The translations under genes were made by a program, and so were the position numbers. Of a stretch of 64,000 bases of DNA, positions 8,843 through 43,333 are shown one piece after another. The notes under the pieces were generated by a model. That model ran no database searches. It was not told where the DNA came from and saw only the letters and a list, made by a program, of their open reading frames with translations. Positions within the stretch are counted from its first letter, which is position 1; each line of letters begins with the position of its first letter. The stretch comes from Escherichia phage SKA64, in the sequence record OM362897.1. One strand, 5' to 3'.

Positions 8843-8884
8843 ATGTGATACATCTTATCAGGTTGTGGCTTGTTGTCAAGACTT

Positions 8885-9082: not shown

Positions 9083-9101
9083 GATCTTAACTCCAAATAG
9101 T

Positions 9102-9121: not shown

Positions 9122-9268
9122 TACGTGGTAAATATTATGCCGCCACCTGGCGAACGTCAACCACTTTTTCAATCTTTTTATTTTCTTTTTGCTTGCTATA
9201 TATAAAGGAAAGGGCTATCATCTTTCTACCGCGCCAACCAGGGCGCACAACAAAGAAAGGGCGACACC

Positions 9269-27961: not shown

Positions 27962-27974
27962 CTTAGGAGGTTTC

Positions 27975-28166
27975 ATGGTTACATATTTTGCTGTAGGAGA
28001 TAGAGTAGGGACGGCAGGAGAACTTTTGAAGAACAGTGATCGGGACGTTAAGGACATTCTTGCAACCCTTGTGGATATTTTACAAAGAAAAGAGTTGCTT
28101 TCTGATCGAGATGTTGCTAAATTACTTGATATCGGAGGAGATGAACTTCAAAGACTTCCATTTTAA
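27975..28166 (+). CDS. hypothetical protein (63 aa)
   Basis: track ORF trimmed to ATG at 27975 after TTAGGAGG. Confidence 0.5.
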   Translation: MVTYFAVGDRVGTAGELLKNSDRDVKDILATLVDILQRKELLSDRDVAKLLDIGGDELQRLPF

Positions 28167-28181
28167 GTGAGGAGATAAGTA

Positions 28182-28787
28182 ATGCAACATAGTGTAGTAG
28201 TCAACATGCCGAATAGTGGGGATAAATCTTTTGGTGTCCCTGCTAAAAAAGTGTGGAAAGCCCATTTTCATCTTACTTTATCTAACGTTAGTTCTGAAGA
28301 GTTGATGAAAGCAGCTAAGATTATTGGTGCCAAATGCACAACAATTGATTTACATCGGGATACAAAGTCTCAACGTGATCGTATGTTAACAAAGTATCAA
28401 AGCGATCTCGACACTACTTTAATGTTGCAGTGTGTAGAAAAACTTGAGAATGCAGGTTTCAATGTTGTTCGTTACAAACTGGAACGAATGTTTAAACATG
28501 TTGCCTGTGTTCTTTTCATGGATCTAAGTAAAGAAAATTACGGAGAAGTTCACATTAAGACTTCAGCAAGTGATCCCGAAGTAGAAACAAACTTCTTCCG
28601 TATTTCTTCTAATGCTGAAGAAATTGATTACCGATTTTATAATGCTCGCTTATATTCCGCAGAAGATAAGTTGCGTTTCAATGAAGCGTATGATATGCTC
28701 TTGAACAGTGGGATACAGATAAAAGGCTACCACATAGAACAAGTGGTAGTGGACAGTAATCTTAACTTAGACGCATGGTGGGCTTAA
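28182..28787 (+). CDS. hypothetical protein (201 aa)
   Basis: ORF track; GAGGAGA RBS; single HLTL motif, no confident family. Confidence 0.55.
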   Translation: MQHSVVVNMPNSGDKSFGVPAKKVWKAHFHLTLSNVSSEELMKAAKIIGAKCTTIDLHRDTKSQRDRMLTKYQSDLDTTLMLQCVEKLENAGFNVVRYKLERMFKHVACVLFMDLSKENYGEVHIKTSASDPEVETNFFRISSNAEEIDYRFYNARLYSAEDKLRFNEAYDMLLNSGIQIKGYHIEQVVVDSNLNLDAWWA

Positions 28788-30764: not shown

Positions 30765-30986
30765 ATGGGTGTTTTTGCAGGTATTGTTGCAGTGGTAAGC
30801 TTTTTTGTTATTGCTTTTATGCTTAGTTTGATTCCAGCTTGGTTACTGTTGCTGGCTTACAACTATGTTGCTGAAGTTATGGGTCATGCAGATATCACTG
30901 TCCCAGTAACCTTCTGGACCGTGGTTTGTGTTTCGTTTATTCTGGCTGTATTACGAGGAATCTTTTCCTCTCATTCAACAAAATAA
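30765..30986 (+). CDS. small membrane protein (73 aa)
   Basis: ORF track; GAGGAGA RBS; two hydrophobic helices. Confidence 0.6.
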   Translation: MGVFAGIVAVVSFFVIAFMLSLIPAWLLLLAYNYVAEVMGHADITVPVTFWTVVCVSFILAVLRGIFSSHSTK

Positions 30987-30989
30987 GTG

Positions 30990-31017
30990 TTGACATAGTT
31001 CTTAAAAAGAGTAAGAT
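30990..31017 (+). promoter_or_regulatory. sigma70-like promoter
   Basis: TTGACA-N16-TAAGAT. Confidence 0.6.
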
Positions 31018-31029
31018 ATATCACATGAA

Positions 31030-31048
31030 GCGGGGAATAGTTCCCCGC
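31030..31048 (+). promoter_or_regulatory. PeSL-like 5' leader stem-loop (only plus-strand copy)
   Basis: GCGGGGAA-TAG-TTCCCCGC between promoter and AGAGGAGAAAAG RBS. Confidence 0.55.
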
Positions 31049-31065
31049 AAAGAGAGGAGAAAAGA

Positions 31066-32040
31066 ATGCAACTTGGTTTCCCCATTATTGATGTAGTTGT
31101 TTTAGTTGGTATTTTAGCATTGTCTATTGGTATCGATTTCTTTGGTCACAAAGAAAATAAAGAAATTTCATTCAAATCCGCAGTTGATTGGTCGATCTTT
31201 TGGATTGGTGTATCATTAGCTTATTATGGTTTTGTATACTTCCAACATGGTGCCGATTTTGCTAACTTGTTTTTAAGTGGATATGTGTTGGAAAAATCTT
31301 TGTCGGTAGATAACTTAGTAGTATTTGTAGCAGTATTCGCAAGTTTTGGTATTAAAAGCACACACTTGCAGCACAAGATTCTACTTTGGGGTATTGCAGG
31401 TGCGATTGTCTTCCGAGGTGTGTTTGTAGCAGTAGGCACTTACTTGTTAAGTTTGGGCTGGTATGTTAATATCTTCTTCGGTGCGGTCATCCTTTTCTGT
31501 GCAGCTAAAATGGTATTTGCTGGAGATAATGACGCAGAAGTTGATTACTCTAAACACTGGGCTACCCGTATTGTTCGTAAACTGTTCCCTGTATCTAATA
31601 AAATGGATGGGGAGAAGTTCTTCACAATCGAAAATGGTGTTCGTGTAGCAACTCCAGCTTTGGTTTGCGTATTCGTGATGGAAATGGTGGATGTAATCTT
31701 TGCAGTAGATTCGGTTCCAGCGGTGATCGCAGTGACACAAGAACCCCTACTTGTATTCTCTTCGATGTTATGTGCAATCTTAGGTCTACGTGCTCTGTTC
31801 TTTGTTCTTAGTGTCGCACTGAAGTATCTGGTTCACTTGGAGAAAGCAGTTATTGTGGTTCTGGTGTTTGTAGGCGTTAAACTGATGTATCACCCGTTTG
31901 CAGAAACATTGCATGAGAAAATGAGTTTCCTGCCAGCACATATTGATCCAACTATTAGTATGTATATCGTGCTTGGTACTTTGGCCCTTGGTGTTATTGC
32001 AAGCTTTATCTTCCCTGAAAAAGAAGAAGCTACTATTTAA
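31066..32040 (+). CDS. TerC/Alx-family integral membrane protein
   Basis: multi-pass membrane protein; LSGYVLEKSLSVDNLVVFVAVF and FGAVILFCAAKMVFAGD blocks resemble TerC/Alx family. Confidence 0.8.
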   Translation: MQLGFPIIDVVVLVGILALSIGIDFFGHKENKEISFKSAVDWSIFWIGVSLAYYGFVYFQHGADFANLFLSGYVLEKSLSVDNLVVFVAVFASFGIKSTHLQHKILLWGIAGAIVFRGVFVAVGTYLLSLGWYVNIFFGAVILFCAAKMVFAGDNDAEVDYSKHWATRIVRKLFPVSNKMDGEKFFTIENGVRVATPALVCVFVMEMVDVIFAVDSVPAVIAVTQEPLLVFSSMLCAILGLRALFFVLSVALKYLVHLEKAVIVVLVFVGVKLMYHPFAETLHEKMSFLPAHIDPTISMYIVLGTLALGVIASFIFPEKEEATI

Positions 32041-32045
32041 TAAAT

Positions 32046-32070
32046 GAGCCTCCTTCGGGAGGCTATTTTA
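32046..32070 (+). terminator. rho-independent terminator
   Basis: AGCCTCC-TTCG-GGAGGCT followed by ATTTTAT. Confidence 0.65.
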
Positions 32071-32082
32071 TAGGAGAGACTT

Positions 32083-32433
32083 ATGAGTAATTTTGATGAA
32101 ATTCAAGAACTTGTTTGGGATTTATCTGGTGATGTGGATTACATTTCAGATTATCTTTCAAAAGTTTACCCTGGGGTAAGCGTTATGATTGTGACCAAAG
32201 ATCCAATTAGTTTGCCTCCCAATGTTGTAGCTTGTTGTGGAAGTGGTTCAGGAGAAGTAGAGCCTGTATCTCGTTGGGAATTAACTAAAGCTGTTTCAAA
32301 ACGAAACGGTGAAGTTTTGAATATTGATATTGAGCAAATATGGACTTCTCCAGCAGCCAAATGGAATGATCCAAATGGTTGGGATTTGTTCTTCTGGGAT
32401 AATGAGACTGATGATGAGGTGTTTTTAAAATGA
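32083..32433 (+). CDS. hypothetical protein (116 aa)
   Basis: ORF track; AGGAGAGA RBS. Confidence 0.6.
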   Translation: MSNFDEIQELVWDLSGDVDYISDYLSKVYPGVSVMIVTKDPISLPPNVVACCGSGSGEVEPVSRWELTKAVSKRNGEVLNIDIEQIWTSPAAKWNDPNGWDLFFWDNETDDEVFLK

Positions 32434-32675
32434 AATACTTGTTGGTTGTGTTTGAAAATATCTGTTTTGCAATAGGGTTGTTTGTTGTAATTTTTGTATT
32501 GACAAGCGTAATCAACGGCAGTAAAGTGAGTTTATACCGAGATGGAGAGCAACTTTATTGCTTCTCTGGAGATTTCAAACACAGATGTATTAATAGCCAA
32601 AACGAGGAAAGCAAATATGAAAAAACTAGCCCTGATTTTAATTGGTTGTATCTTTTTAACAGCTTGCGAGGATGA
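32430..32675 (+). CDS. small membrane protein (81 aa), overlaps next gene
   Basis: ORF track; ATGA start overlap; hydrophobic N-terminus; 3' end overlaps lipoprotein gene by 59 nt. Confidence 0.35.
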   Translation: MKYLLVVFENICFAIGLFVVIFVLTSVINGSKVSLYRDGEQLYCFSGDFKHRCINSQNEESKYEKTSPDFNWLYLFNSLRG

Positions 32676-33054
32676 AACAAATCCTGCACAATACCAACAA
32701 CCTCCTCAACAATACGCTCAACAAGGATCTGACGGAGATACAACTATTATCAACAATGGTGGCGGTTCTAGTAGTAGCGGTGTTGGTGAGTTTGCTACAG
32801 GTATGTTGTTAGGGCATATGATGAGTGGCGGTAGTAATCGTAGCAGTGGGGATTATAACGATAACAGAACGATTATTAATAAGCATTATAATACACCTAA
32901 ACCGAAAACTAATTTTTATGGTAAGCCTAAACAAGAGATAAAAACTTATGAAAAGCCGAGACAAACTTTTAAAACAAATAGTAGCTATACAACTCGTAAA
33001 TCTTACAATAGCCCTTTAAGTAAAAAGAGTTCATCTCGTAGCAAGCGACGTTAA
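32617..33054 (+). CDS. lipoprotein with Gly/Ser-rich linker
   Basis: start ATG 32617 after GAGGAAAG; signal peptide plus lipobox LTAC; GGGSSSSG low-complexity segment. Confidence 0.6.
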   Translation: MKKLALILIGCIFLTACEDETNPAQYQQPPQQYAQQGSDGDTTIINNGGGSSSSGVGEFATGMLLGHMMSGGSNRSSGDYNDNRTIINKHYNTPKPKTNFYGKPKQEIKTYEKPRQTFKTNSSYTTRKSYNSPLSKKSSSRSKRR

Positions 33055-33068
33055 TAAGGAGAAAAACA

Positions 33069-33662
33069 ATGACAATTTCTATTCGTACTTCCATTACAGG
33101 TGTTAAAAGTTTGCCTAATGCTTTGCAAATCACACGTGCTTTGAGGGATACGTTCTCTGCTGTGGATGAGCATAAGATGCTCGATAATCTCTCAAATTGG
33201 CCCTATTTTCATTATTTTAAAAATGAAGACGACGAGTTTATAGACGCTGTTTCTTACGGTTATGATTTCGGTAAGGAGGTTTCCCCTGAAGAATTTGTAG
33301 CTACGGTGTTCCCAAACGGTTTGCCTACTCGCAGTAAACGTAAAAAAGGACCAAAAAACAAGAAACGTGCTACTAATAAAGCTACCATTTTCTTTACTGA
33401 TGGCACACAATATACGATTAAAGACTTTGAAGAGGTATCTTATACAGCAGGTGGGAGTCTTTCTTTCTACACCATCAAAAAACAAAACTATACGTTCAGC
33501 CATGTTTCTAACATGATTGAAATGTTAGTAGAAGATATTGAAAGCGTGGCTGTGTTAGGTATGCATAAAAGCTTTTTAATTACAAATATTTCAGATTTCA
33601 GTGCAAGTTTATCTGGCCCTGATTTTGAAGCCACGACCACGCATTTCGCTTTTAAGGTGTAA
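33069..33662 (+). CDS. hypothetical protein (197 aa)
   Basis: ORF track; TAAGGAGAAAA RBS. Confidence 0.6.
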   Translation: MTISIRTSITGVKSLPNALQITRALRDTFSAVDEHKMLDNLSNWPYFHYFKNEDDEFIDAVSYGYDFGKEVSPEEFVATVFPNGLPTRSKRKKGPKNKKRATNKATIFFTDGTQYTIKDFEEVSYTAGGSLSFYTIKKQNYTFSHVSNMIEMLVEDIESVAVLGMHKSFLITNISDFSASLSGPDFEATTTHFAFKV

Positions 33663-33665
33663 GTT

Positions 33666-34256
33666 ATGCATACCGAGAGAGACTTGCAACTCTTGTGGTG
33701 GGAAGTGATGCAGGAAATAAAAGAAGATTTTCCTGTTTACTACAACATGTTACGTGAAGCAGGATATAAAGCTTGTGTTAGAAACAAAGTGAATAACTCT
33801 TTCGGTTGGTGCAACTACCGAGATAAAATTGTTGTTGTAAATTGGCACTTGCATAAGAACTCCACAAGAGATATGATCGTGGATACAATGAAGCACGAAA
33901 TTGCTCATGCTATTGATGGTTGTATGGGTAAGTTTAGTAGGCACGGTGCTCATTGGCAAAAACTGGCAGCAGAATTAGGGGCTAATCCTAAAGCCACTTC
34001 CAAAGAGCCGTTGAACCACGAATATAAATATGTTCTTGTTCTGGTAGATAGGTTTGCGACAAGATGTGTTAGAGGTTATAATCGTAAACCTAATCGCATG
34101 TACCCAGGTAAGCAACCTAATATGTGGTTGAAATCAGATAAAGAAGGGACCGAAGGAAAATTATGGTTGTATAAATGGGACGATTGGGTTAAAGTAGCTA
34201 AAGAGTACGGTGTTTCACCATATATAAGAGATGCAGAAGAGGAGAATGAAGAATGA
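33666..34256 (+). CDS. SprT-like zinc metalloprotease domain protein
   Basis: HExxH motif in MKHEIAHAIDG followed by HGAHW. Confidence 0.5.
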   Translation: MHTERDLQLLWWEVMQEIKEDFPVYYNMLREAGYKACVRNKVNNSFGWCNYRDKIVVVNWHLHKNSTRDMIVDTMKHEIAHAIDGCMGKFSRHGAHWQKLAAELGANPKATSKEPLNHEYKYVLVLVDRFATRCVRGYNRKPNRMYPGKQPNMWLKSDKEGTEGKLWLYKWDDWVKVAKEYGVSPYIRDAEEENEE

Positions 34257-35365
34257 CAAGTCCATTTTTAAAAGCAGCTACTGGTGGTCAGAAGAAGCCT
34301 GAAATGAGCGTATTTGCTGCAACAACAGATGCAAGTAAATCTGTATTCGCTCCAAGCGTGTTAGATGCCAGTCCTGTTTATGCACCAGCGGCACCGCAAG
34401 AAGTTCCAGTTTTGCCTTCTATGACCCGACAAGAGATTGAAGAGATTGGGGCAGAGGCAGGAACAACCTTGCGTTCCTTGAATGCCGAGGTGTTAAAACA
34501 TCAACGTAGTAATCAAGGCGATCAGATGAGTGAACGACTCACAGCTTTGATTAAACAGGCAAAACAACTTGATCCAAACTCTATTAAACAAAGCAAGGGT
34601 ATTACTAAACTCATTAAAAAAGTTATGGGTATGAAAGAAGACCTGTTCGGGGAGTTTGATAATGTTAATAACCGTATTGAAGAGTTGGTAAAGAACCTTC
34701 AAATGGATATTCGCAAAGAAGAAGATTCCTTGGTATATCTTGAAAAGCTACATCAAGCTATTGGACAATATGCTGCAAGTTTGAACCGAGATATGCAGCT
34801 TCTAACAGCAACCTATGAAAAAGAAGAACAAGCTTTGGCTGCTCTTCCAGAAGATGCAGTAGAACAGCGACAAGTGATCCGAGATACTTTGGATCTTCTG
34901 GAGATTCGTATTGCAGATTTAAAAGCATTGCGCCTACTGTGTGTCCAAATGGGACCGCGTGTACAAGGTATGCAAAAAGTTTCTGCAAGCTTAATGCGAT
35001 CTGCGCGTAACATAGTAAATAATGTTATTCCTGCTTACTCTGCTAACTTCTCAATGTATATCGAGAGCTTACGTCAAATGAAAGCAGCAGAGACGCAGAA
35101 TAACGTTCTTGATGAATTTAACCTGGCAATTAAACTGGGTAGCGATCTTGCCACACAGAATCAGATCGAAGCAGCAGCACTGGCTAACCGTCAAGTGTTG
35201 GATATTGAAACTCTGCGTCACGATCAGGAAAACTTGGTTAAGATGCTGGAAGAAACTAACCGCATCAATACGGAAGCCCGTGCTGCTCGTGTTGATTATA
35301 TTAATGAAGTTCAATCTCTGGAAGACGGGATGGTAGCTGCTGTGAAACGAGGGCTTGGTAAATGA
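34253..35365 (+). CDS. coiled-coil protein, TelA-like candidate
   Basis: 370 aa, largely helical with heptad-like repeats; assignment is contextual (sits in Ter-type cluster). Confidence 0.3.
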   Translation: MTSPFLKAATGGQKKPEMSVFAATTDASKSVFAPSVLDASPVYAPAAPQEVPVLPSMTRQEIEEIGAEAGTTLRSLNAEVLKHQRSNQGDQMSERLTALIKQAKQLDPNSIKQSKGITKLIKKVMGMKEDLFGEFDNVNNRIEELVKNLQMDIRKEEDSLVYLEKLHQAIGQYAASLNRDMQLLTATYEKEEQALAALPEDAVEQRQVIRDTLDLLEIRIADLKALRLLCVQMGPRVQGMQKVSASLMRSARNIVNNVIPAYSANFSMYIESLRQMKAAETQNNVLDEFNLAIKLGSDLATQNQIEAAALANRQVLDIETLRHDQENLVKMLEETNRINTEARAARVDYINEVQSLEDGMVAAVKRGLGK

Positions 35366-35559
35366 GAATCCGTATCTATATAATTGATGAAGACATTGGT
35401 GTCCGTTATGATGACGAAAAACGATTCGCACCGATGGGAGGCATATATCCCCCAAGTGTTCTAGCAGTTTGTCGTGATTGTTATATTTATGAAGGTTGTC
35501 GTAACTTCCGTAAATTCGAACTCCTTGCAGATATTGACTTCAATGAGGAGGAGGAGTAA
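35362..35559 (+). CDS. hypothetical protein (65 aa)
   Basis: ORF track; overlapping start/stop. Confidence 0.5.
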   Translation: MRIRIYIIDEDIGVRYDDEKRFAPMGGIYPPSVLAVCRDCYIYEGCRNFRKFELLADIDFNEEEE

Positions 35560-35732
35560 TGAAAATATTACGAGTGAATATTGAAACTGCTTGGTGTGGA
35601 TGCAATGAGGTTGTGGATATCGAAATTGAAGATGATATGTCTCAAGAGGATATAGAAGATCTTGCACACGAAACCTTTCAGGATTATTGTAATTACGGGT
35701 TCCATATTTTAGAGGAGGAAGAAGATGTATAA
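35559..35732 (+). CDS. hypothetical protein (57 aa)
   Basis: hand-translated; GGAGGAGGAG RBS; start overlaps upstream stop, and stop overlaps the next start. Confidence 0.4.
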   Translation: MKILRVNIETAWCGCNEVVDIEIEDDMSQEDIEDLAHETFQDYCNYGFHILEEEEDV

Positions 35733-36123
35733 TCCAACAGGTATTCTTTTAAAACTTACAGTAACAGACCCTACTCTTTTCATCAAGTTAGCAAGTGGTG
35801 AAGTTTATGAAGTAATGAAAGATGATGACGGTTGGTGTTATCTTTGTGGCTACTTCCTCTGTGATGCAGAAGAGTTAGAATCCATTGTAACTAAAGGTTT
35901 TTATGAAGAACCAGGGTTCCGTGTGGAAACTACGCAGAAACCTGATACCATTACGTTGACTCGACAGGAACTGATCACAATCATTGAAGATGCTTTTATT
36001 GATGGCTGGAATACACAAGATAATGACTGGGGTGGACCCGAAGCTTTTCTGGAACATCATAAAGCTTATGGAGAATTTTGTGAAACCACTGTAGCTCTTG
36101 ATAATCTGAAGGAGGGTTTGTAA
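35725..36123 (+). CDS. hypothetical protein (132 aa)
   Basis: ORF track; GAGGAGGAAGAAG RBS. Confidence 0.6.
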   Translation: MYNPTGILLKLTVTDPTLFIKLASGEVYEVMKDDDGWCYLCGYFLCDAEELESIVTKGFYEEPGFRVETTQKPDTITLTRQELITIIEDAFIDGWNTQDNDWGGPEAFLEHHKAYGEFCETTVALDNLKEGL

Positions 36124-36686
36124 TGGGTTGTTTTAGCTTTTTGTGCAAAGAATCGGGCAAAGCTGCCCTTTCTACTTCTTTCGACGGATCACCTTGCTAC
36201 CTCTTTCTTTTGAAGGACGGTGTTGTTATTGAAGAGATGTATGGCAACTATGATAGTTATGGTTGTGTTTTCTCTGGAAAGGAGGATGAAAATGGTGTTC
36301 GTGAACGATTTGAATGGGCTATGGATTGGAGTAAGGTTTGTGATTTGATGCATTCCTCAAATCCAAGAGACGGTATCGCTATGGTGCTGGAAGAGTACTT
36401 TACAGGTGAAATCCCTACAGAACAATCTGACGGAGATCCTAACCAAGGTTGGGGTGATGGTGAAGAAGATCCAGATTGTTTTTTCAGCACAGAAAAGAAT
36501 AAGTTTAAACGTGTTGACAACCCTTATCACAAAGTGCATAATACTCTCATTGAAACAGAAGATGACAAGATGGAAATTGAAGAAGATGATCCTCTTGTAA
36601 CACTTCCTATAAGTGAGTTACAAAAGATCACTAAGGAAGCTTACGATTTGGGCTTCAAAATTGGTAGAGGAGGTATGCGTGTTTAG
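36123..36686 (+). CDS. hypothetical acidic protein (187 aa)
   Basis: ORF track; GGAGGG RBS. Confidence 0.6.
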   Translation: MGCFSFLCKESGKAALSTSFDGSPCYLFLLKDGVVIEEMYGNYDSYGCVFSGKEDENGVRERFEWAMDWSKVCDLMHSSNPRDGIAMVLEEYFTGEIPTEQSDGDPNQGWGDGEEDPDCFFSTEKNKFKRVDNPYHKVHNTLIETEDDKMEIEEDDPLVTLPISELQKITKEAYDLGFKIGRGGMRV

Positions 36687-36957
36687 ATTCAATATTCAAG
36701 AAGAAAAAAGTCAAGATTTACCTATTGCTTTCGAAGATCTTGACGTAGGGGCAACATTCATGTATTATGATGCCTATGAAGACGCAGGGTTGGATACGTA
36801 CCGTAACTTGGTGTTCATTAAAAATTCCACAAACAGTGCGATTTGTATTAATGGATCACTAGCACAACGAGGCTATACTCATTGCATCCCACCAGATACA
36901 AATATGGTGGAAGTAGATTTAGAAGTTACCAATATTACACTTAAGAAGGAGAAATAA
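36679..36957 (+). CDS. small protein, paralog 1 (92 aa)
   Basis: GTG start after AGAGGAGG; paralog of 37979..38248 (DLDVG.TF.Y...). Confidence 0.5.
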   Translation: MFRFNIQEEKSQDLPIAFEDLDVGATFMYYDAYEDAGLDTYRNLVFIKNSTNSAICINGSLAQRGYTHCIPPDTNMVEVDLEVTNITLKKEK

Positions 36958-36958
36958 T

Positions 36959-37753
36959 ATGTCCGAGAAAATCAGCCTGAAAAAACGTCAAGAAAACCTT
37001 GCTTTCTCTCTGAAAAAGAATAAGAACCTGAATGAAGGTAAGATTGTTCTTCGTGTAGCATGTGCTCTAGATATTTCTGGTAGTATGCATGGTCTATATT
37101 CTAGTGGGGTAGTGAGTGATTTTGTAGGTAAACTGCTTCCTTTTGGTATGTTGTTCGACGATAATCAACAAATTGATATGTGGGCCTTCAATACGAGTTC
37201 CCAAGAGCTTACTCCAGCAACAGCAGACGTTTACGACGACTATGTTGGTAAATGTATGCGTAATGTTCGTATCGGAGGTGGAACAAATTACGCCCCTGTA
37301 ATGGCAGATATCTACGATGAGTATTTTGGCACTGTTACCAAATATATTACCACTAAACAAGTGGTACAAGAGGAGGCTCCAAAGAAAGGCTTCTTTAATC
37401 GTCTGCTTGGTAAAACTGAAACAGTGTCTGTAGAGCGTGAAAAAGTTGTAGCTGTATCAGAACCAGGTGCTGACGTTACCCCTGGTGTTGTATTCTTCCA
37501 GACGGATGGTGAGAATGGTGATCCTAGTGCTGTTCGTCGTCTTATCGAAGAGAATAAGAATAAACCTATTTATTGGTTCATGGTTGGCGTTGGTAATGAG
37601 AAGTTTGGCTTCCTGAAAGAACTGGCAAATGCTTATGATAATGTTGGTTTTATTGGCATTAAAGATTTAGACTTGACAGATTCAGAGCTTTATGACAAAC
37701 TCTTATCTGAAGAGTTCGGAGAGTGGGTTGTTAAAGTAGGTGCTAAAAAATGA
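36959..37753 (+). CDS. von Willebrand factor A domain protein (TerY-like)
   Basis: MIDAS motif DISGSM; N-terminal ISLKK/FSLKK repeat shared with TerD gene. Confidence 0.7.
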   Translation: MSEKISLKKRQENLAFSLKKNKNLNEGKIVLRVACALDISGSMHGLYSSGVVSDFVGKLLPFGMLFDDNQQIDMWAFNTSSQELTPATADVYDDYVGKCMRNVRIGGGTNYAPVMADIYDEYFGTVTKYITTKQVVQEEAPKKGFFNRLLGKTETVSVEREKVVAVSEPGADVTPGVVFFQTDGENGDPSAVRRLIEENKNKPIYWFMVGVGNEKFGFLKELANAYDNVGFIGIKDLDLTDSELYDKLLSEEFGEWVVKVGAKK

Positions 37754-37998
37754 TCGACGAGCTTGCCTCTCAAGTCATAGAAAATTATTGGCGCGAGAGA
37801 GAAGCTTTCATTATGCGCAGTCTCAAAGAGTATTTCATTGGGACTGTGCGAATGGAAGATATTGTAAGTAGAGTGGAGATTCATGTATGGCCCGATTATG
37901 AAGAATGGGTTGACAAAGAAAATGAAAATGCTATAATTCTTCGTATATACAAACCGGAGATAACATTAGGAGGAAGAAGTGTTAAACTTCGAAATTGA
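37750..37998 (+). CDS. hypothetical protein (82 aa)
   Basis: ORF track. Confidence 0.55.
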   Translation: MIDELASQVIENYWREREAFIMRSLKEYFIGTVRMEDIVSRVEIHVWPDYEEWVDKENENAIILRIYKPEITLGGRSVKLRN

Positions 37999-38248
37999 TG
38001 AGCAAAAAGTAAATAAACGATGCCTTACCATTAAAGATTTGGATGTAGGAGATACTTTCGTCTATGAAAATGCATTTGACGAAAATGGTTTAGACCTTAG
38101 TGAAATCATTGTTTATTTAAAAGTAGATGATGGGGAAAATGATTATTCTGCTGTAGAACTAAACCATCATGCACAATTAGTATCAATCCAAAGCACATCT
38201 AAGCTTTTGGAAGTAGAATTGACTGTAACTGGTATTACACTTAAATAA
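37979..38248 (+). CDS. small protein, paralog 2 (89 aa)
   Basis: GTG start after GGAGGAAGAA. Confidence 0.5.
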   Translation: MLNFEIDEQKVNKRCLTIKDLDVGDTFVYENAFDENGLDLSEIIVYLKVDDGENDYSAVELNHHAQLVSIQSTSKLLEVELTVTGITLK

Positions 38249-38263
38249 TAGAGGAGACAAAAG

Positions 38264-38866
38264 ATGACTGATAAAATTTCCCTGAAAAAAGGCTCTAGCG
38301 AAAAAATTTCCCTGAAGAAGGTTGCTCCGGCTCTGAAAGAACTGCGCCTGGAATTCTCTTGGAAGTCTGATTCTAAACTGGATCTGGATGTAAGTGCACT
38401 GGTTTGTCGTCACAATGCCGCTGGCAATCCTGAAATGCTGTCTGCACGTCATCTTGTTTGCTATGCTAACAAGTTTGATCCTGAACGTTCTACCTTCGCT
38501 GGTGACGATGTTCGTGATGGCACTGGCAGCATGGAGCAGATCGATATTACTCTGGCTAAAATCTCTCCTGATGCACAAGAGATTGCCTTTGTTCTGACCA
38601 TTGATGATGATACAGGTCTGAAACGTTTTGGTCATGCTTCTGAAGGTATGCTTAAAATCTTCGACTCCGAGCGCAATGTGGAAATTCTGGATTTTGACTT
38701 CCTGGCTCCTGAAGTAGCTGGCAACACAATCTGCCACGTGGCTTCCTTGGTTCGTGAAGATGGGGAATGGAAGCTGAAAGCATATGGTGTAGGCAAAGCT
38801 GGTCTGGATATTTGTGATGTGGTGATGGCCTTCGGTGGTAAAAAAGAATGGTATGAATGTCCATAA
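38264..38866 (+). CDS. TerD-domain protein
   Basis: ISLKKGSSEKISLKK...LDLDVSALVC N-terminus and GEWKLKAYGVGKAGL C-terminus resemble TerD family. Confidence 0.8.
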   Translation: MTDKISLKKGSSEKISLKKVAPALKELRLEFSWKSDSKLDLDVSALVCRHNAAGNPEMLSARHLVCYANKFDPERSTFAGDDVRDGTGSMEQIDITLAKISPDAQEIAFVLTIDDDTGLKRFGHASEGMLKIFDSERNVEILDFDFLAPEVAGNTICHVASLVREDGEWKLKAYGVGKAGLDICDVVMAFGGKKEWYECP

Positions 38867-38885
38867 TAATTAACAAATGATTTTG

Positions 38886-38912
38886 AGGGGGAGAAATCCC
38901 CCTCTTGCAATA
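38886..38912 (+). terminator. rho-independent terminator candidate
   Basis: GAGGGGG-AGAAAT-CCCCCTC then TTGCAAT. Confidence 0.5.
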
Positions 38913-38933
38913 AAGCCTCTATCGTGTTATACT
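38905..38933 (+). promoter_or_regulatory. sigma70-like promoter
   Basis: TTGCAA-N17-TATACT ahead of lysin gene. Confidence 0.55.
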
Positions 38934-38965
38934 AGAAATTCGTTAACTTAAAAAGGAGGCAAAAT

Positions 38966-39487
38966 TTGCTGATAAAAAACTTTGTAACAGTTGCGTTACT
39001 ATCCTTAACTGCTTTTACATTTACACCTGTTGTGGCGAAAGCCGAAGCTGCAAACGTAAAAACCGCTAAAGTAGTTCACAAATGTACAAAGCAATATAAT
39101 GATAAAATTCTATTAGCTTGTGCAATTTACGCAGAAGGTCGCGGTCTGGGTAAAAAAGGAATGAATGCCGTTGGGAATGTGGTAATCAACAGAAGAAATG
39201 ATACCTACTTCCCTAACACAGTCAGAGGGGTCTTGTTCCAGAAAGGGCAATTCTCATATGCGAAAACTTTTAACGTAACAGAGAAAGATAAGTGGCAGGA
39301 AGCAAAAGCAATAGCGGAGCGTTTACTTTATTTAGAGAAACATTTTCCTGAATTGCGGTCTGTTTTAGATGTTACTAAAGGTGCTCTATACTTCAAGAAA
39401 CGGAATATAAGGACACACTGGGAACGTGATATGCGTCTTGTTTATCGAGATAAAGTGCATGGTTTCTATCTACCAAAGGGGAGTTAA
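38966..39487 (+). CDS. SleB-like cell-wall hydrolase with N-terminal signal/anchor (endolysin candidate)
   Basis: TTG start after AAAGGAGG; hydrophobic N-terminus; AIYAEGRGLGKKGMNAVGNVVINR and VLFQKGQFS resemble SleB-type hydrolase. Confidence 0.65.
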   Translation: MLIKNFVTVALLSLTAFTFTPVVAKAEAANVKTAKVVHKCTKQYNDKILLACAIYAEGRGLGKKGMNAVGNVVINRRNDTYFPNTVRGVLFQKGQFSYAKTFNVTEKDKWQEAKAIAERLLYLEKHFPELRSVLDVTKGALYFKKRNIRTHWERDMRLVYRDKVHGFYLPKGS

Positions 39488-39488
39488 A

Positions 39489-39773
39489 ATGCAAGAAGAT
39501 AATACTGTTGTTGTAGCAAGTTACCTGGTTGTCGGTCTTACTGAAGAGGATGTATACTACACCCGTAAGCATTTAGAAGCATACGCTACTTTGTTTATGG
39601 AAGATGAAAAGGATGTAGATAAATATAGCATTGACATGATCAACGACAGTATTTATCCTTGTATGGTTCTTAAAGTAGATGCTGTGTTGTGGGAGCGTTT
39701 TGCAAGGACTCATGATGCTGTAGAATGCTCCGCAGTAATGTCTCAAAACAACATTTTAGGGGAGATTCATTGA
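39489..39773 (+). CDS. hypothetical protein (94 aa)
   Basis: ATG at 39489 after GGGGAG; C-terminal part of track ORF 39426..39773. Confidence 0.5.
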   Translation: MQEDNTVVVASYLVVGLTEEDVYYTRKHLEAYATLFMEDEKDVDKYSIDMINDSIYPCMVLKVDAVLWERFARTHDAVECSAVMSQNNILGEIH

Positions 39774-40003
39774 TGGGAGAAGTCATTGAAGTCAATTTTC
39801 GCACTAAACAGAAAGTGCAAAAATATGTCGTTATTAAAAACATTTGCGTTGTCTGCTTCAATACAGTAATATACGACTCACGACGCGGAGAAAACGAAAA
39901 TGAACCTTACATTGAAATTTCTAAGAACAAAGGTCAATGTATTTGTAAGAACTGTGCAGTAGCTATTAAGGAGGTTGTAAATGAAAACGCTTGGGACCAA
40001 TGA
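39773..40003 (+). CDS. Zn-ribbon protein (76 aa)
   Basis: ATG at 39773 (TGATG overlap); CVVCF...CKNC. Confidence 0.5.
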   Translation: MGEVIEVNFRTKQKVQKYVVIKNICVVCFNTVIYDSRRGENENEPYIEISKNKGQCICKNCAVAIKEVVNENAWDQ

Positions 40004-40172
40004 AACTGGCGAGATCTCTCTTCAAGAAGTGACAAACGACAAACTGATTAAACTACGGGACGTAGCCCGTGACCATCTCCAAGAATCTTTTAAAGAATAT
40101 ATGGAAGCACGAGATCGTGTGATTCAGATCCAACAAGAAATGATTAAACGTGGGATTGTAGCTGACAGTTAA
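39981..40172 (+). CDS. hypothetical protein (63 aa)
   Basis: ORF track; TAAGGAGG RBS. Confidence 0.55.
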   Translation: MKTLGTNETGEISLQEVTNDKLIKLRDVARDHLQESFKEYMEARDRVIQIQQEMIKRGIVADS

Positions 40173-40188: not shown

Positions 40189-40752
40189 ATGATTTATTAT
40201 ATTACTCCCTATCTGACAGGAAATATCGGCAAGGCTATCAATGAAGCCATTGCCGTTCTTCCAGATGATAGTTGGGTGTGTTTAAGAGATACCGATACAA
40301 TGTTCCTCCTACCTGATCAACCATCTATGCTTGAAGAGCTTGTTATGTCAAACCCGCCTTTTGATGTAATAGGTGCAACTTGTAACAGGTTAGGTAGTGG
40401 TTATCAGCTTTTCTCTAACCAAATTAACGATGATCCCGATATTCTAAACCATATAGAATATGCTAAGATTGCAAGAGAATATCATAAAGTGAGTGTTGAA
40501 GAAGTTCCTTTCGGAACACCTCTGGCAGGTTTCTTTTTGCTTTTTAGAAAATCATTGTGGAATGAAATTCCTTTCGAAGAAAAATCTATCCAATTCGACT
40601 TAATTTTCTCTCGCACTTTACATGAAAAAGGAAAGAGGTTAGGATTGATGCGGGGAATGTATCTGTTTCACATTTACAGATTAGGTCAAACAAATCCTCA
40701 ACGGTCTATACATCATTTATTACACTGTCATGATCACAGTAAAACTATTTAG
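40189..40752 (+). CDS. putative glycosyltransferase-like protein
   Basis: ORF track; GGAGGGGAGA RBS; LRDTDTMF possible DxD-like motif; weak. Confidence 0.35.
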   Translation: MIYYITPYLTGNIGKAINEAIAVLPDDSWVCLRDTDTMFLLPDQPSMLEELVMSNPPFDVIGATCNRLGSGYQLFSNQINDDPDILNHIEYAKIAREYHKVSVEEVPFGTPLAGFFLLFRKSLWNEIPFEEKSIQFDLIFSRTLHEKGKRLGLMRGMYLFHIYRLGQTNPQRSIHHLLHCHDHSKTI

Positions 40753-40760
40753 GAGAGAAA

Positions 40761-41444
40761 ATGGAAAATATTAAAATCGGAGTGGGTGTTATCACTGTAG
40801 GTGTCCGTCCACTTAAAGACTACCTTGTAACAGATCCACGTGCAGATTTTCGAGTATTCAACGATCCAGATCGTAAAGGTGTAGCTTATGCCAGGAATGA
40901 ACTTATGCACCAGTTTTATGAAGAAGGTTATGATTATTGGTTTATTTTTGACGATGATTGCTACCCAGTCATGGAGGGATGGGAAACATACTTTGTAGAT
41001 CAAGCTGTCTCTGGAGGATGGGATTTCTTTGGTATGCCGGAGTATTTCAAAGATAAAGTTGTTGGAAGCAAAGGAGAAGTTATTCTCTGGGAACTTGCAA
41101 TGTGTCAATTTGCAATGTATTCTCGTGCCGTTGTTGAGAAGATGGGTTATTTCCGTCCTTACACTCACGGTTATGGTTTTGAAGATGCTGAATGGGGACA
41201 CCGTTTGCAAGCTGCTGGTTTGAATCATGGTATTCAGGCAACACCTTGTCCACTTCGTATCATGGCTTATATCCACCCAGACGATGTTTTTGGAAACAAT
41301 CCTATGCCTTTTGCTAACCTGACAAAAGAAGAGAAAGAGGCTGCTATTGGGATTAACTGGGAAGAATATAAAGCATCTTTAGAGGATATTAAAAATGGGA
41401 AAATCCGAATTTCCTATGAGGAGGCACTAGCACATGTCAAATAA
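40761..41444 (+). CDS. family-2-like glycosyltransferase (GT-A fold)
   Basis: GVAYARNELMHQF, DxD-type FIFDDDCYP, GYGFEDAEWGHRL. Confidence 0.55.
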   Translation: MENIKIGVGVITVGVRPLKDYLVTDPRADFRVFNDPDRKGVAYARNELMHQFYEEGYDYWFIFDDDCYPVMEGWETYFVDQAVSGGWDFFGMPEYFKDKVVGSKGEVILWELAMCQFAMYSRAVVEKMGYFRPYTHGYGFEDAEWGHRLQAAGLNHGIQATPCPLRIMAYIHPDDVFGNNPMPFANLTKEEKEAAIGINWEEYKASLEDIKNGKIRISYEEALAHVK

Positions 41445-42381
41445 AAAATGGTCTAAACTAAAAATTGATGCAAAACCTCACAGCGGTTGTGACTATCATC
41501 GTATTGTTATACCATTTAACAACAATAATATTCAACCTAAGAAAGATGTTGTTGTGTTTAACCGTATCCACTCTAAAGGTGCAGAATACGTTTTATCTTT
41601 GAAACGTCAAGGTGTTAAGGTTGTTGTAGACTTAGATGATTTTTACCAACTTAATCCAGAACATTATTTAGCAAGTCTATACGAGTCAAACACTCATGCT
41701 ATTGTAGCTATGGTTAAGCTTGCTGATGTGGTTATTGTGACTACGGAATATTTGGCATATAAGATCCGTCACTTAAATAGGAATGTTGTTGTGATCCGAA
41801 ATGCACTTCCTTTTGATAGCGGACAATTCACTTTGTCAAATGATCGTTCATCCGGTACCCCTGTTGTATGGGCTGGCGGTGCTAGTCACGAACCAGACTT
41901 ACGACTAGTCTCTAATACTTTCGATGATGAACTTCTTACTATTGCGGGATATGAAGCATCACAAAGCATCACGGGACAAGAGTGGATTAAGATTCGCAGA
42001 AATTTACCAAATGCCAAATATAAAGCCGCTGTAAAAGATTTAGATAATTACATGAGTGTTTACGAAAGTCATGCTATTGCTATAGCTCCTTTGGTAGATA
42101 ATGATTTTAATAATTGTAAAAGTAATCTCAAAATCCTGGAAGCTGGAGCAAAAGGTATTCCAATTGTTTGTTCTAAGGTATTACCTTATTTTAACCCTGT
42201 AGATGCTCGCGCTGTTGCTTACGCAGAGAATAAAGCAGAATGGCATTACGAAATTGTTAAGCTTCTTCGCAATCCAAACTATCGGGAAGATCGTGGCTTG
42301 TTCTTGGCTGAACATGTTCGAACACATTATAATCTGGCAGATGCAAACGAGTTGCGACGCCAGGTTATTGAAAGTTTGTAG
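41434..42381 (+). CDS. putative glycosyltransferase, paralog 1
   Basis: ORF track; shares CD(Y/F)HR(I/V)V(I/L)P, LDD, VWAG, APL(V/I)DN.FNN.KSNLKILEAGAKG with next gene. Confidence 0.4.
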   Translation: MSNKKWSKLKIDAKPHSGCDYHRIVIPFNNNNIQPKKDVVVFNRIHSKGAEYVLSLKRQGVKVVVDLDDFYQLNPEHYLASLYESNTHAIVAMVKLADVVIVTTEYLAYKIRHLNRNVVVIRNALPFDSGQFTLSNDRSSGTPVVWAGGASHEPDLRLVSNTFDDELLTIAGYEASQSITGQEWIKIRRNLPNAKYKAAVKDLDNYMSVYESHAIAIAPLVDNDFNNCKSNLKILEAGAKGIPIVCSKVLPYFNPVDARAVAYAENKAEWHYEIVKLLRNPNYREDRGLFLAEHVRTHYNLADANELRRQVIESL

Positions 42382-42388
42382 GTGAAGT

Positions 42389-43333
42389 ATGGGACAAATA
42401 ATTCTTGACAATCGTAACGGAATCAATTATAGTGTCTGCGATTTCCATAGGGTAGTGCTGCCTTACTCAAGGCAGTTCTCTTCACAACCTAAACACAACG
42501 TTTTCGTTTTTAACGGAGTGCCAACAAAAGGTAAAGAGGGCTTTTTAGCCCTTAAAAACCTAGGCTTTAAAATGGTTATGGATTTGGATGACTCTTTAGT
42601 TATTCCAAAAGGACACATGTTAGAAGGTATTTTTGAATCAGGTATTCGTGAACATTTAAAATGGTTTTTAGAGCACAGCGATCTTGTTACAACTACGACA
42701 CCTGCTTTGCAAGTTGAACTTTCACAATACAATGATAATGTGCACATAATCCCTAATGGTCTTCCTTACGATGAAGGTCAATTTGTGTTGACCCGTGATC
42801 GCTACTCCAAAACTCCATTAGTCTGGGCGGGAAGTGAAACACATAAACAAGATTTGGCTATCTTGCCCGATTTTGGTAAAGATCTTACGATATGTGGTTT
42901 TCGTAGGGATTCTGAAGTTTTAAGTAGTCGTGAATGGTCTGTGATCAGAGAAAATGTAGCACCAACTTGTGTTTATGAAGGTGTAAGACCATATGCCAAC
43001 TACATGGAATCTTACGATGGTCATCAAATCAGTCTTGCGCCATTGATTGATAACGTGTTTAATAATGCAAAAAGCAATCTTAAAATTCTTGAGGCAGGTG
43101 CTAAGGGTTTACCTTTGATCTGTTCTCCTCGTGAGAATTATCATACACAAGAGTTTAAAGATTTGTTATTCTTTGCTGAAACGCCTTCCGAGTGGAAAGA
43201 TATTACGGAATACTTATTAAGTGCTCCCGATGTTTGCATGGAGAAAGGATTAGCATTAGCTAAGTATGTCAGGACTCATTATCACATTGATGTGTTGAAT
43301 GAGCGTCGTAGACTTTTATTTGAGGAGCTATAA
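42389..43333 (+). CDS. putative glycosyltransferase, paralog 2
   Basis: ORF track; tandem paralog of 41434..42381. Confidence 0.4.
   Translation: MGQIILDNRNGINYSVCDFHRVVLPYSRQFSSQPKHNVFVFNGVPTKGKEGFLALKNLGFKMVMDLDDSLVIPKGHMLEGIFESGIREHLKWFLEHSDLVTTTTPALQVELSQYNDNVHIIPNGLPYDEGQFVLTRDRYSKTPLVWAGSETHKQDLAILPDFGKDLTICGFRRDSEVLSSREWSVIRENVAPTCVYEGVRPYANYMESYDGHQISLAPLIDNVFNNAKSNLKILEAGAKGLPLICSPRENYHTQEFKDLLFFAETPSEWKDITEYLLSAPDVCMEKGLALAKYVRTHYHIDVLNERRRLLFEEL

Follow-up and report, generated by a model that had tools for sequence, protein, structure and literature searches.

Exported and SleB-like lysins in described systems

Lys44 of Oenococcus phage fOg44 is muralytic and carries a true, cleavable Sec signal peptide. 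It is the sole endolysin of fOg44 and is encoded in the lysis cassette, in a Gram-positive system, in contrast to the phAPEC8-like genome considered here, in which a separate canonical endolysin exists. The signal-arrest-release (SAR) endolysins P1 Lyz, phage 21 R, phiKMV gp45, and Mu gp22 resemble the SleB-like protein of Escherichia phage SKA64 in their hydrophobic N-terminus, their Gram-negative hosts, and their Sec-dependent, holin-independent export, which is predicted for the SKA64 protein. The catalytic fold of the SKA64 protein is a different one. SAR examples contain about five Gly. SAR domains have no c-region (PMC3765740), and a SAR transmembrane domain (TMD) consists mainly of weakly hydrophobic residues and is rich in Gly, Ala, Ser, and Thr; 10 of 20 residues are small in that of Mu gp22 (PMC9239132).

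The SleB/CwlJ spore cortex-lytic enzymes of Bacillus (PDB: 4f55, 4fet) have a catalytic domain homologous to that of the SKA64 protein, with a Glu and groove Arg/Tyr/His residues at matching spacing. The catalytic residues and transglycosylase chemistry of SleB have been described (PMC13556211, PMC12331253); in B. subtilis, the catalytic residue is E203 and the groove residues are R222, Y278, and H301 (PMC13556211). The SleB architecture also includes an N-terminal peptidoglycan-binding three-helix domain and a linker (PMC12331253), and Bacillus SleB requires muramic-delta-lactam, which the E. coli wall lacks (PMC13556211).

At least four other phage lineages (rV5-like, T5-like, Certrevirus/Septuagintavirus, and Pakpunavirus) pair an exported SleB-like homologue with a main endolysin of another kind. 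These other lysins include the Phage_lysozyme protein Gp89 in rV5 (PMC3606486), an M15-type peptidase in Septuagintavirus and Certrevirus (PMC11370258, PMC7344957), and a PF11860 muramidase (gp076, alongside the SleB-like gp029) in Pakpunavirus. In T5-like phages, the M15 peptidase gene adjoins the holin gene and the SleB-like gene is far off (PMC11180984, PMC3326045); the T5 endolysin is an L-Ala-D-Glu peptidase, and a SleB-like protein with a signal peptide is also kept (PMC7344957, PMC11180984).

The Vequintavirinae proteins (Certrevirus CB7_83, Cronobacter phage CR3_087, and rV5-like naam_76) have the same Pfam domain as the SKA64 protein, a similar size, and a signal peptide, but are only ~35% identical to it. 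Like the phAPEC8/tuntematon gene, their genes are not placed near the spanin genes and are accompanied by another lysin gene (PMC7344957). CB7_83 is reported, as data not shown, to have a signal peptide and to be toxic when expressed in E. coli (PMC7344957). In certreviruses, a holin candidate with two TMDs overlaps or adjoins the SleB-like gene, whereas none does in the 64,000-nucleotide stretch of SKA64 (OM362897.1) analyzed here, referred to below as the window. The rV5-like neighbors are a MoxR ATPase and rIIA/rIIB, and those in SKA64 are TerD/vWA and glycosyltransferase genes. T5.083, a 'cell wall hydrolase SleB homolog,' is a Hydrolase_2 protein with ~36% identity to that of SKA64 and a cleavable-looking signal peptide (MKAALLLVAALTFSFSSQA/SH), and its gene shares an early/non-structural placement far from the holin-endolysin pair (PMC3326045, PMC11180984). 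It differs in its Cys positions, and the main endolysin of T5 is an M15 L-Ala-D-Glu peptidase, not a T4-type lysozyme.

The SleB-like gene of SKA64 and its catalytic domain

The window belongs to Phapecoctavirus and is ~99% identical to Escherichia phage tuntematon/phAPEC8. Its SleB-like ORF (38966..39487, plus strand) runs from a TTG start codon (38966–38968) to a stop codon at 39485–39487 and encodes 173 aa. The ORF is real, and its translation opens MLIKNFVTVALLSLTAFTFTPVVAKAEAANVK, as in an earlier sequence-only reading, which had described a SleB-type lysin, either secreted or of the SAR type. The gene is present in 1221 phage records (tblastn) and is already known: the tuntematon/phAPEC8 copy (gp109, ~99% identical) is annotated as 'putative cell wall hydrolase SleB' or 'endolysin.' Ordinary and already deposited, the gene poses a question of function, not of discovery.

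The SleB/CwlJ-type catalytic domain (Hydrolase_2; 39095..39484, plus strand) is supported by Pfam, phmmer, and residue conservation. Residues 62–168 match Pfam PF07486 (Hydrolase_2) at 64.1 bits (E=1.9e-17), exceeding the gathering cut-off of 27 and spanning profile positions 3–100 of 100, which bears out the SleB-like catalytic region proposed earlier. Residues 44–98, including the catalytic-Glu motif, match the Bacillus SleB catalytic domains 4f55 and 4fet in phmmer, and E57 (codon 39134–39136, plus strand) lines up with the Glu of their YGESRG motif. The accompanying groove residues are R76, Y142, and H165. None of E57, R76, and H165 varies over five phage lineages, and at position 142 either Y or H occurs. 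The E-to-R (+19) and Y-to-H (+23) spacings are those of E203/R222 and Y278/H301 in SleB, the equivalence of Y142/H165 to Y278/H301 being drawn from spacing, not from direct alignment. In a Foldseek search of the PDB, the top three matches are SleB catalytic domains (probability 0.99–1.00), 4f55 and 4fet among them; these matches have an E-value of ~0.1 and a target-normalized TM-score of 0.46–0.48, and the query is an AF2 model of low confidence (mean pLDDT 62 overall, ~75–85 in the core). A pN/pS of 0.19–0.31 indicates purifying selection on the domain, and the invariance of its catalytic Glu and groove residues over five lineages points to selection for catalysis.

The phage protein is not an orthologue of Bacillus SleB. 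Against the SleB equivalog of NCBIfam (TIGR02869) it scores 51.7 bits where the cut-off is 236.5, with a match over residues 37–117 only. Unlike Bacillus SleB, it has neither the N-terminal three-helix peptidoglycan-binding domain nor a YpeB partner; a Pfam search yields no second domain, and ~17 residues separate the signal peptide from the catalytic region. As the E. coli wall is devoid of muramic-delta-lactam, activity of the SleB-like protein on the host wall is not guaranteed.

Relation to the lysis genes

The surroundings of the SleB-like gene, which are syntenic in relatives, consist of Ter-like (TerD/vWA), glycosyltransferase, and replication genes and include no lysis genes. Downstream are three small ORFs on the plus strand (39489–39773, 39773–40003, and 39981–40172), also syntenic in relatives, which are apparently co-transcribed (39489..40172) and translationally coupled; no TM segment and no known family was found in them. 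When all ORFs of the window are scanned for TM segments by Kyte-Doolittle hydropathy, no small membrane ORF adjoins the gene, in agreement with the earlier statement that no holin is obvious nearby. None of nine small membrane proteins from the reference genome matches a holin family in a PHROG scan. In these scans a holin is recognizable nowhere in the genome, including one to serve its T4-type lysozyme, which leaves a gap in the canonical pathway as well.

This lysozyme, tuntematon gp234 (PF00959 Phage_lysozyme), is identical to T4 lysozyme at 81 of 158 residues (51%). It is of the T4 gpe type, with an intact E-D-T motif and no hydrophobic N-terminus, and its gene lies ~78 kb from the SleB-like gene. 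An Rz/Rz1 pair adjoins TerL, ~51 kb from the SleB-like gene; its i-spanin has an N-terminal TMD and its o-spanin the lipobox LMMTGC, and a phi92/phAPEC8 spanin family has been listed previously (PMC6139136). The sequence-only reading drew on 64 kb only, and the lysozyme and spanin genes lie outside that stretch.

It has been supposed, and the earlier reading assumed, that the SleB-like protein is the endolysin of this phage. If so, it would be Sec-exported, and either holin-free or activated by holin-driven collapse of the membrane potential as is Lys44, and the lysozyme would be redundant or serve another purpose. The RefSeq label of the gene is 'endolysin,' the protein matches the PHROG 938 'endolysin' profile (E=1.2e-18), and the Hydrolase_2 protein is the only endolysin named in the SKA64 paper (PMC10282059), but an intact orthologue of T4 gpe, catalytic motif included, is also encoded in the genome, as are spanins. 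The genome-wide lack of a recognizable holin would matter less if lysis were Sec-driven; however, the gene is far from any lysis gene, a placement that is conserved, and T5 keeps its SleB-like protein even though its endolysin gene adjoins a holin gene, with rV5 and Pakpunavirus likewise retaining theirs. With no adjacent TM protein and with the lysozyme present, the SleB-like gene is neither near a holin or spanins nor the source of the sole muralytic non-structural enzyme. Given the lysozyme and spanin pair elsewhere and the second endolysins across lineages, we regard the designation as endolysin as doubtful and this explanation as unlikely. For the same reasons, holin-independent lysis accounts less well for the missing neighboring holin than does a SleB-like gene that lies outside the core lysis set.

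The N-terminus

Residues 1–26 (38966..39043, plus strand) are predicted to form a tripartite signal peptide, with an n-region MLIK that includes the basic K4, an h-region F6–T20, and a c-region P21–A26 with small residues at -3 and -1. The predicted signal peptidase I site is A24-K25-A26/E27, with Pro21 at -6. Such a (-3,-1) site is kept in 15 of 15 homologues, 3–8 residues past the conserved Pro, in a c-region of variable sequence. The pN/pS of the signal peptide is relaxed (0.5–0.84), as is typical of signal peptides. Cleavable-looking signal peptides are also carried by the rV5-like (..PVVA/AP) and T5-like (..SQA/SH) homologues. A cytoplasmic (holin-dependent) endolysin would have no export signal, whereas here a hydrophobic N-terminus with n-, h-, and c-regions is conserved in the homologues. 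After removal of the signal peptide, the predicted mature protein comprises 147 aa (~17.0 kDa, pI 9.9).

If the N-terminus were instead a SAR domain, the enzyme would stay tethered and inactive in the inner membrane until depolarization by a pinholin or holin. The uncharged stretch (residues 5–24) is weakly hydrophobic for a TMD (mean KD 1.66) and Thr/Ala-rich; its content of small residues (G/A/S/T, 8 of 20, 40%) approaches the 10 of 20 of Mu gp22 (PMC9239132). However, the h-region contains no Gly and is 50% strongly hydrophobic (L/I/V/F/M), and a Pro-preceded (-3,-1) site, A24-K25-A26/E27 in SKA64, persists in 15 of 15 homologues while the surrounding residues vary; both the conserved signal-peptidase site and the Gly-free, more hydrophobic h-region set the protein apart from SAR endolysins (PMC9239132, PMC3765740). 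The N-terminal anchor of the Pakpunavirus homologue looks uncleaved. The moderate hydrophobicity of the h-region leaves SAR-like behavior some probability, and calls of this kind have proved wrong before, as with T4 RI (PMC8385771). The h-region sequence is also unusually conserved, but this conservation is at the nucleotide level (low pS) and its pN/pS is relaxed, so we rejected a special protein function of the h-region as its cause. Furthermore, there is no adjacent pinholin-like or releasin gene, and in the AF2 model residues 1–34 are not packed against the catalytic domain. A SAR domain is accordingly improbable. The site conserved in 15 of 15 homologues, the Pro at -6, and the Gly-free, half-hydrophobic h-region favor a cleavable Sec signal peptide over a SAR anchor; of the two options in the sequence-only reading, secreted or SAR, the export signal itself stands and the secreted form fits better.

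The predicted mature protein begins with a conserved segment (EAANVKTAKVVHKCTKQ; 39044..39094, plus strand), defined by alignment and with a pN/pS of 0.14–0.29. It includes Cys40, which, like Cys52, is invariant. The C-x11-C spacing also occurs in the rV5-like homologue, and a periplasmic Cys40-Cys52 disulfide is possible.

Upstream elements and 5' conservation

A GC-rich hairpin (GAGGGGGA-GAAA-TCCCCCTC; 38885..38904, plus strand) lies 3' of the TerD-like gene and abuts the -35 element described below. It is kept with compensatory changes in 7 of 7 homologous loci (helix 1, 85.7% paired, with two pairs changed on both sides). There is no U-tract at the hairpin in the SKA64 sequence, and for this reason it is probably a leaky terminator or an insulator.

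A consensus scan predicts a sigma-70-type promoter (38905..38933, plus strand) with a -35 element TTGCAA (38905–38910), a 17-nt spacer, and a -10 element TATACT (38928–38933) extended by TG at 38925–38926, from which transcription would start near 38940. Both the -35 and the -10 with its TG extension are kept in seven loci, down to 59% protein identity. Similar promoters precede a head gene and the spanin operon of this genome. As sigma-70-like promoters thus precede both early and structural genes, the temporal class of the gene cannot be read from the sequence. The late-promoter motif of rV5 is TggTAaAAtA (PMC3606486); we rejected the TG-extended -10 as an instance of it, as there are 26 genome matches against ~24 expected and these are not placed before structural genes.

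The ribosome-binding site AGGAGG (38954–38959, plus strand) and the TTG start are invariant in 7 of 7 homologous loci. A candidate anti-SD element, GCCTCT (38915..38920, plus strand), is complementary to the SD and lies within the promoter spacer, and would therefore be present in read-through transcripts only. The motif is unique in the window and is conserved in 7 of 7 loci (GCCCTCCT in locus L013) despite its spacer position. GCCTCT-SD pairing occurs in the minimum free energy structure of 6 of 6 sequences folded, with 87.5% of cells in the helix paired versus 49–66% for slid controls; the z-scores for this element range from -0.9 to -2.7. In partition function calculations, SD accessibility is better in the proximal than in the read-through transcript in three of six homologues and is unchanged in the window sequence and two other homologues. 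Masking of the RBS by the upstream GCCTCT is thus a weakly supported prediction. The predicted partner of the SD in the short transcript is AUCCUU at 39001–39006.

In T4 gene e, too, the SD of a muralytic gene and the 5' strand of a helix that could sequester it are separated by a promoter, and the RBS is masked in early read-through transcripts (PMC3014915). The SKA64 locus differs in that the effect is predicted and inconsistent (found in three of six homologues, not in the window) and in that the promoter is sigma-70-like, not T4-late.

The start codon and first ~45 codons coincide with a local peak of nucleotide conservation (38956..39100, plus strand) that includes synonymous sites: pS is 0.12–0.24 within it versus 0.73–0.80 in the remaining gene, and DNA identity is 85–100% versus 65–80% in the flanks. 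RNA structure was rejected as the cause, as the fold is of no exceptional stability (z=0.07), as was recombination, as identity drops on both sides of this local peak.

Proposed role of the SleB-like protein

The reading we favor, at a probability of about 0.6, is that this is a Sec-exported accessory periplasmic wall hydrolase, not the main endolysin, produced at low dose. The sequences show the ORF, its domain and conserved active-site residues, the anatomy of the export signal, the second lysin and spanins, the pattern across lineages, and the conserved promoter elements; we infer export, cleavage, activity on the E. coli wall, the accessory role, and the control of expression as follows. 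The 173-aa precursor would consist of a Sec-type signal peptide (residues 1–26), a short conserved segment, and a single SleB/CwlJ-type domain with an intact Glu. In infected E. coli, it would be exported via Sec without any holin and cut by signal peptidase I after Ala26, releasing into the periplasm a ~17-kDa basic enzyme that cleaves the glycan strands of peptidoglycan, possibly, by homology with SleB, as a lytic transglycosylase. The main endolysin would be the T4 gpe-type cytoplasmic lysozyme, acting with a holin and the Rz/Rz1 pair. The SleB-like enzyme would be a conserved accessory hydrolase common to phAPEC8-, rV5-, T5-, and PAK_P1-like phages, irrespective of which main endolysin they carry, and would probably weaken or remodel the sacculus before lysis, or assist lysis. 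The hairpin, the gene's own sigma-70-type promoter, the TTG start, and an RBS predicted to be largely base-paired would keep its dose low.

An exported protein that binds or modifies the wall with little bulk lysis, serving early remodeling, superinfection interference, or muropeptide signaling, would accord with the substrate restriction of SleB-type enzymes in Bacillus (PMC13556211), with a location in a non-structural replication/metabolism block under its own sigma-70-type promoter, with the rV5-like copy directly upstream of rIIA/rIIB and the T5-like copy in the early region (PMC3326045), and with conservation alongside varied true endolysins, but it is the least probable explanation, as five lineages keep the catalytic Glu and groove residues unchanged, a homologue is reported to be toxic in E. 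coli (PMC7344957), and no data indicate a specific alternative role.

Two wall-degrading enzymes are present in many widely used coliphage groups, among them T5-like and rV5/phAPEC8-like therapy candidates, and either of the two may be called 'endolysin' by annotation pipelines; knowing which one drives lysis bears on lysis timing and on correct genome annotation. The role of the second, self-exporting enzyme likewise bears on annotation, and on the choice of antibacterial enzymes, as one able to pass the inner membrane by itself, and toxic upon expression, would be an attractive tool.

More tentatively, and with the balance somewhat against it, these proteins may represent a widespread, uncharacterized class of accessory periplasmic hydrolases, found in large virulent phages that infect Gram-negative bacteria (phAPEC8-, rV5-, T5-, and PAK_P1-like) and separate from the holin-endolysin-spanin pathway, whose synthesis is throttled. 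If this is correct, throttling would be achieved by the hairpin, the gene's own promoter, the TTG start, the base-paired RBS, and the first ~45 codons conserved at the nucleotide level, and the class would pre-condition or remodel the sacculus or provide holin-independent back-up lysis.

The SleB-like gene and its predicted activity

The ORF at 38966-39487 (+), encoding 173 aa, is present as the sequence-only reading proposed, with an identical translation. The TTG start codon is preceded, at a distance of 6 nt, by the Shine-Dalgarno (SD) sequence AGGAGG, and both are kept in 7/7 aligned homologous loci. Pfam places a Hydrolase_2 domain (SleB/CwlJ-type 'Cell Wall Hydrolase') at residues 62-168 (64.1 bits, E=1.9e-17; gathering score 27), and the protein matches PHROG 938 'endolysin' (1.2e-18). 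Among PDB sequences, phmmer matches only 4f55 and 4fet, both catalytic domains of Bacillus SleB, aligned over residues 44-98 including the catalytic-Glu motif (YGESRG vs YAEGRG). These structures are also the top Foldseek matches (probability 0.99-1.00, E-values weak) of an AlphaFold2 model with a mean pLDDT of 62, a core of ~75-85, and residues 1-34 unstructured. The SleB-like catalytic region is confirmed.

The window belongs to Phapecoctavirus (Stephanstirmvirinae). Across 6 kb it shares ~99% identity with several Escherichia phages, tuntematon and PNJ1809-36 among them; identity to phAPEC8 is 98.8%. GenBank records label the tuntematon counterpart, gp109, 'putative cell wall hydrolase SleB', and RefSeq calls it 'endolysin'. 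Databases and literature already cover both the gene and its signal-peptide character.

The domain is under purifying selection. Across five lineages, at ~35% identity, E57, R59, G60, N75, R76, Q95, S97, and W110 are invariant, as are D135, T137, G139, A140, W152, H165, and Y168. The E57 to R76 and Y142 to H165 spacings match those in the groove of B. subtilis SleB (E203, R222, Y278, and H301; PMC13556211), and SleB lytic transglycosylase activity requires the catalytic Glu (PMC12331253). Orthology to SleB was rejected (NCBIfam equivalog score 51.7 vs a cut-off of 236.5). Because the protein is not a SleB orthologue, lacks the N-terminal peptidoglycan-binding domain of SleB, and would act in a host whose wall has no muramic-delta-lactam, the SleB substrate determinant, its substrate and bond specificity can only be inferred.

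Export signal

Residues 1-26 have a classical layout: K4 makes the n-region basic, F6-T20 form the h-region, and P21-V-V-A-K-A26 the c-region. The c-region varies among 15 homologues of 59-99% identity (AKA, AQA, ATA, GIA, VHA, ALA, SEA, and others), and in all 15 the conserved proline is followed, 3-8 residues on, by one or more small-residue (-3,-1) sites. The N-termini of P1 Lyz and R21 contain 50-62% small residues, including five Gly, whereas the uncharged stretch 5-24 contains no Gly, 40% G/A/S/T, and 50% L/I/V/F/M, with a mean Kyte-Doolittle value of 1.66. Signal-arrest-release (SAR) domains are described as having no c-region and consisting mostly of residues of weak hydrophobicity (PMC9239132, PMC3765740). 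The rV5-like homologue naam_76 begins with the export signal MKIKIFAIILSALLSLPVVA (GTG start codon listed as V) followed by AP, and the T5.083-like protein with MKAALLLVAALTFSFSSQA followed by SH, while the Pakpunavirus homologue has an N-terminal anchor that looks uncleaved. For the Certrevirus homologue CB7_83, a signal peptide and toxicity upon expression in E. coli have been reported, with data not shown there (PMC7344957). Based on the n-h-c layout, the (-3,-1) sites, the composition, the homologues' signals, and the CB7_83 report, we favor a cleavable Sec signal peptide over a SAR domain, with a probability of about 0.65-0.7.

A SAR domain, the other form of export raised by the sequence-only reading, is unlikely. 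The h-region (LSLTAFTFTP) is close to invariant, which could be taken to hint at a SAR-like function, but codon analysis counters this: synonymous divergence (pS) is 0.12-0.24 in codons 2-43 vs 0.73-0.80 across the remaining gene, and pN/pS in the signal peptide is relaxed (0.5-0.84). What is conserved is therefore the local nucleotide sequence, with a DNA identity of 85-100% across ~38956-39100 and lower values on both flanks. The conserved 5' region shows no unusual RNA folding stability (z=0.07), and no overlapping ORF of at least 40 aa is listed in 38956-39100. Export-signal assignments of this kind have been revised before, as the case of T4 RI shows (PMC8385771).

Cleavage of the favored Sec signal peptide would leave a predicted mature protein of 147 aa, 17.0 kDa, and pI 9.9, in which Cys40 and Cys52, invariant in the homologue alignment, are compatible with a putative periplasmic disulfide.

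Expression signals

A GC hairpin (38885-38904) directly abuts a -35 element (TTGCAA, 38905-38910), followed by a 17-nt spacer and a TG-extended -10 (TATACT, 38928-38933). All seven loci conserve the -35, the extended -10, the SD, and the TTG start, as well as the hairpin, which shows compensatory changes. The spacer contains a conserved GCCTCT (38915-38920) complementary to the SD, and GCAAA of the -35 is able to base-pair with UUUGC at the start codon. This anti-SD helix occurs in the MFE structure of each homologue folded (z -0.9 to -2.7) and is 87.5% paired vs 49-66% in slid controls; its motif is found nowhere else in the window. Like the T4 gene e helix, which masks the RBS only in read-through transcripts (PMC3014915), it would be limited to read-through transcripts. 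That it acts as such a mask is doubtful in the folding models: in only 3/6 homologues is the SD predicted to become more accessible in the promoter-proximal transcript, and the window sequence shows no predicted rise (0.18 vs 0.15), its SD being predicted to pair there with AUCCUU (39001-39006).

The predicted combination of transcriptional insulation, an own promoter, a weak start codon, and a largely paired RBS is robust, and agrees with tight limits on the dose of an exported enzyme that may be toxic. A stable GC-rich hairpin/terminator occurs ~10-60 nt before the SD in the rV5-like (L005, ~2940-2995), T5-like (L006, ~2875-2920), and Pakpunavirus (L007, ~2770-2824) records; the comparison suggests that transcriptional insulation of the SleB-like gene may be common.

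Timing is not readable from the promoter, since sigma-70-like promoters serve both early and structural genes of the phage and the genome shows no enrichment of the rV5 late motif. The closest look-alikes lie upstream of the spanin operon, where a hairpin precedes CTTGCAA-N18 and a TG-extended -10, and of a head gene; within the spanin cluster, the gp167 promoter resembles that of the SleB-like gene. Elsewhere in the window, a 21-nt hairpin-forming element, GTAGGGCGGCAATGGTGCCGC, occurs in 8 copies, 7 exact, on the minus strand at 460-9124 (0 expected by chance), in 5' leaders of small early genes right after near-consensus TTGACA-N17-TAnnnT promoters; the reference genome has additional, more diverged copies.

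Genomic neighborhood

The gene sits inside a plus-strand block of non-structural genes, preceded by TelA, vWA-TerF-like, TerD, and TerC-like genes and followed by three small unknown ORFs, four glycosyltransferases, primase/helicase, and DNA polymerase; gene order around it is kept even in relatives whose protein identity is as low as 59%. The tellurite-resistance-like (Ter) module directly upstream (~30765-38866) encodes a small 2-TMD protein (30765-30986), a TerC-like membrane protein (31066-32040), a lipoprotein-like ORF (32542-33054), a TelA-like protein (annotated in relatives), a vWA-TerF-like protein (36959-37753), and TerD (38264-38866), and the TelA-vWA-TerD-SleB order is likewise retained to 59% identity. 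The four consecutive genes downstream of the SleB-like operon (40189-43333), glycosyltransferases per RefSeq, are absent from one related contig, where the TerD-SleB adjacency is still there. In the Vequintavirus naam (L005, 2995-6477), the SleB-like gene lies downstream of MoxR-type ATPase genes and directly upstream of rIIA and rIIB, a different neighborhood, yet again membrane- or envelope-associated.

A probable accessory wall hydrolase

While the reading as an exported SleB-type wall hydrolase is supported, its designation as the endolysin probably does not hold, given a lysozyme and spanins elsewhere in the genome. The complete reference genome encodes a second muralytic protein, gp234 (PF00959 Phage_lysozyme), beyond the 64-kb window. 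It is identical to T4 lysozyme at 81/158 positions, with the E-D-T catalytic motif aligned, and has no hydrophobic N-terminus; gp234 is, by its sequence, a canonical cytoplasmic, holin-dependent endolysin. The large terminase gene is adjoined by an i-spanin (N-terminal TMD) and an embedded o-spanin (lipobox LMMTGC) matching PHROG 1267 'Rz-like spanin', and a phi92/phAPEC8 family appears in a spanin survey (PMC6139136). RefSeq annotates the o-spanin (gp164, MMTGC...) from an internal ATG (L003, the tuntematon record, 27929-28777, corresponding to 97928-98776, outside the window); a longer ORF with the full lipoprotein signal MQKLILAVCLALPLMMTGC starts upstream of this ATG, embedded in the i-spanin gene. 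The sequence-only reading saw no holin nearby, and none was recognized anywhere in the genome; rV5 and Certrevirus likewise have no identified holin.

The same two-enzyme pattern recurs across lineages. The Phage_lysozyme Gp89 is described as the 'obvious lysin' of rV5 (PMC3606486); the rV5-like SleB-like gene is located upstream of rIIA/rIIB. T5-like phages encode an M15 peptidase beside the holin, whereas their SleB-domain protein lies far off in the early region (PMC11180984, PMC3326045). Septuagintavirus and Certrevirus have a SleB-like protein alongside M15-type peptidases (PMC11370258, PMC7344957), and Pakpunavirus PaZq-1 encodes a PF11860 muramidase after the tail fibers and has a SleB-like gene surrounded by ligase and phosphohydrolase genes. 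The strongest argument is that the SleB-like enzyme is constant while the main endolysin varies by lineage, so that the former is probably an accessory periplasmic hydrolase and another protein the core lysis enzyme. Which enzyme such phages mainly use has been explicitly left open (PMC11180984), and for a related phage the Hydrolase_2 protein has been named as the sole endolysin (PMC10282059). What still makes the gene interesting is its function, since several major groups of virulent phages of Gram-negative bacteria share this conserved second wall hydrolase, which is predicted to be self-exporting.
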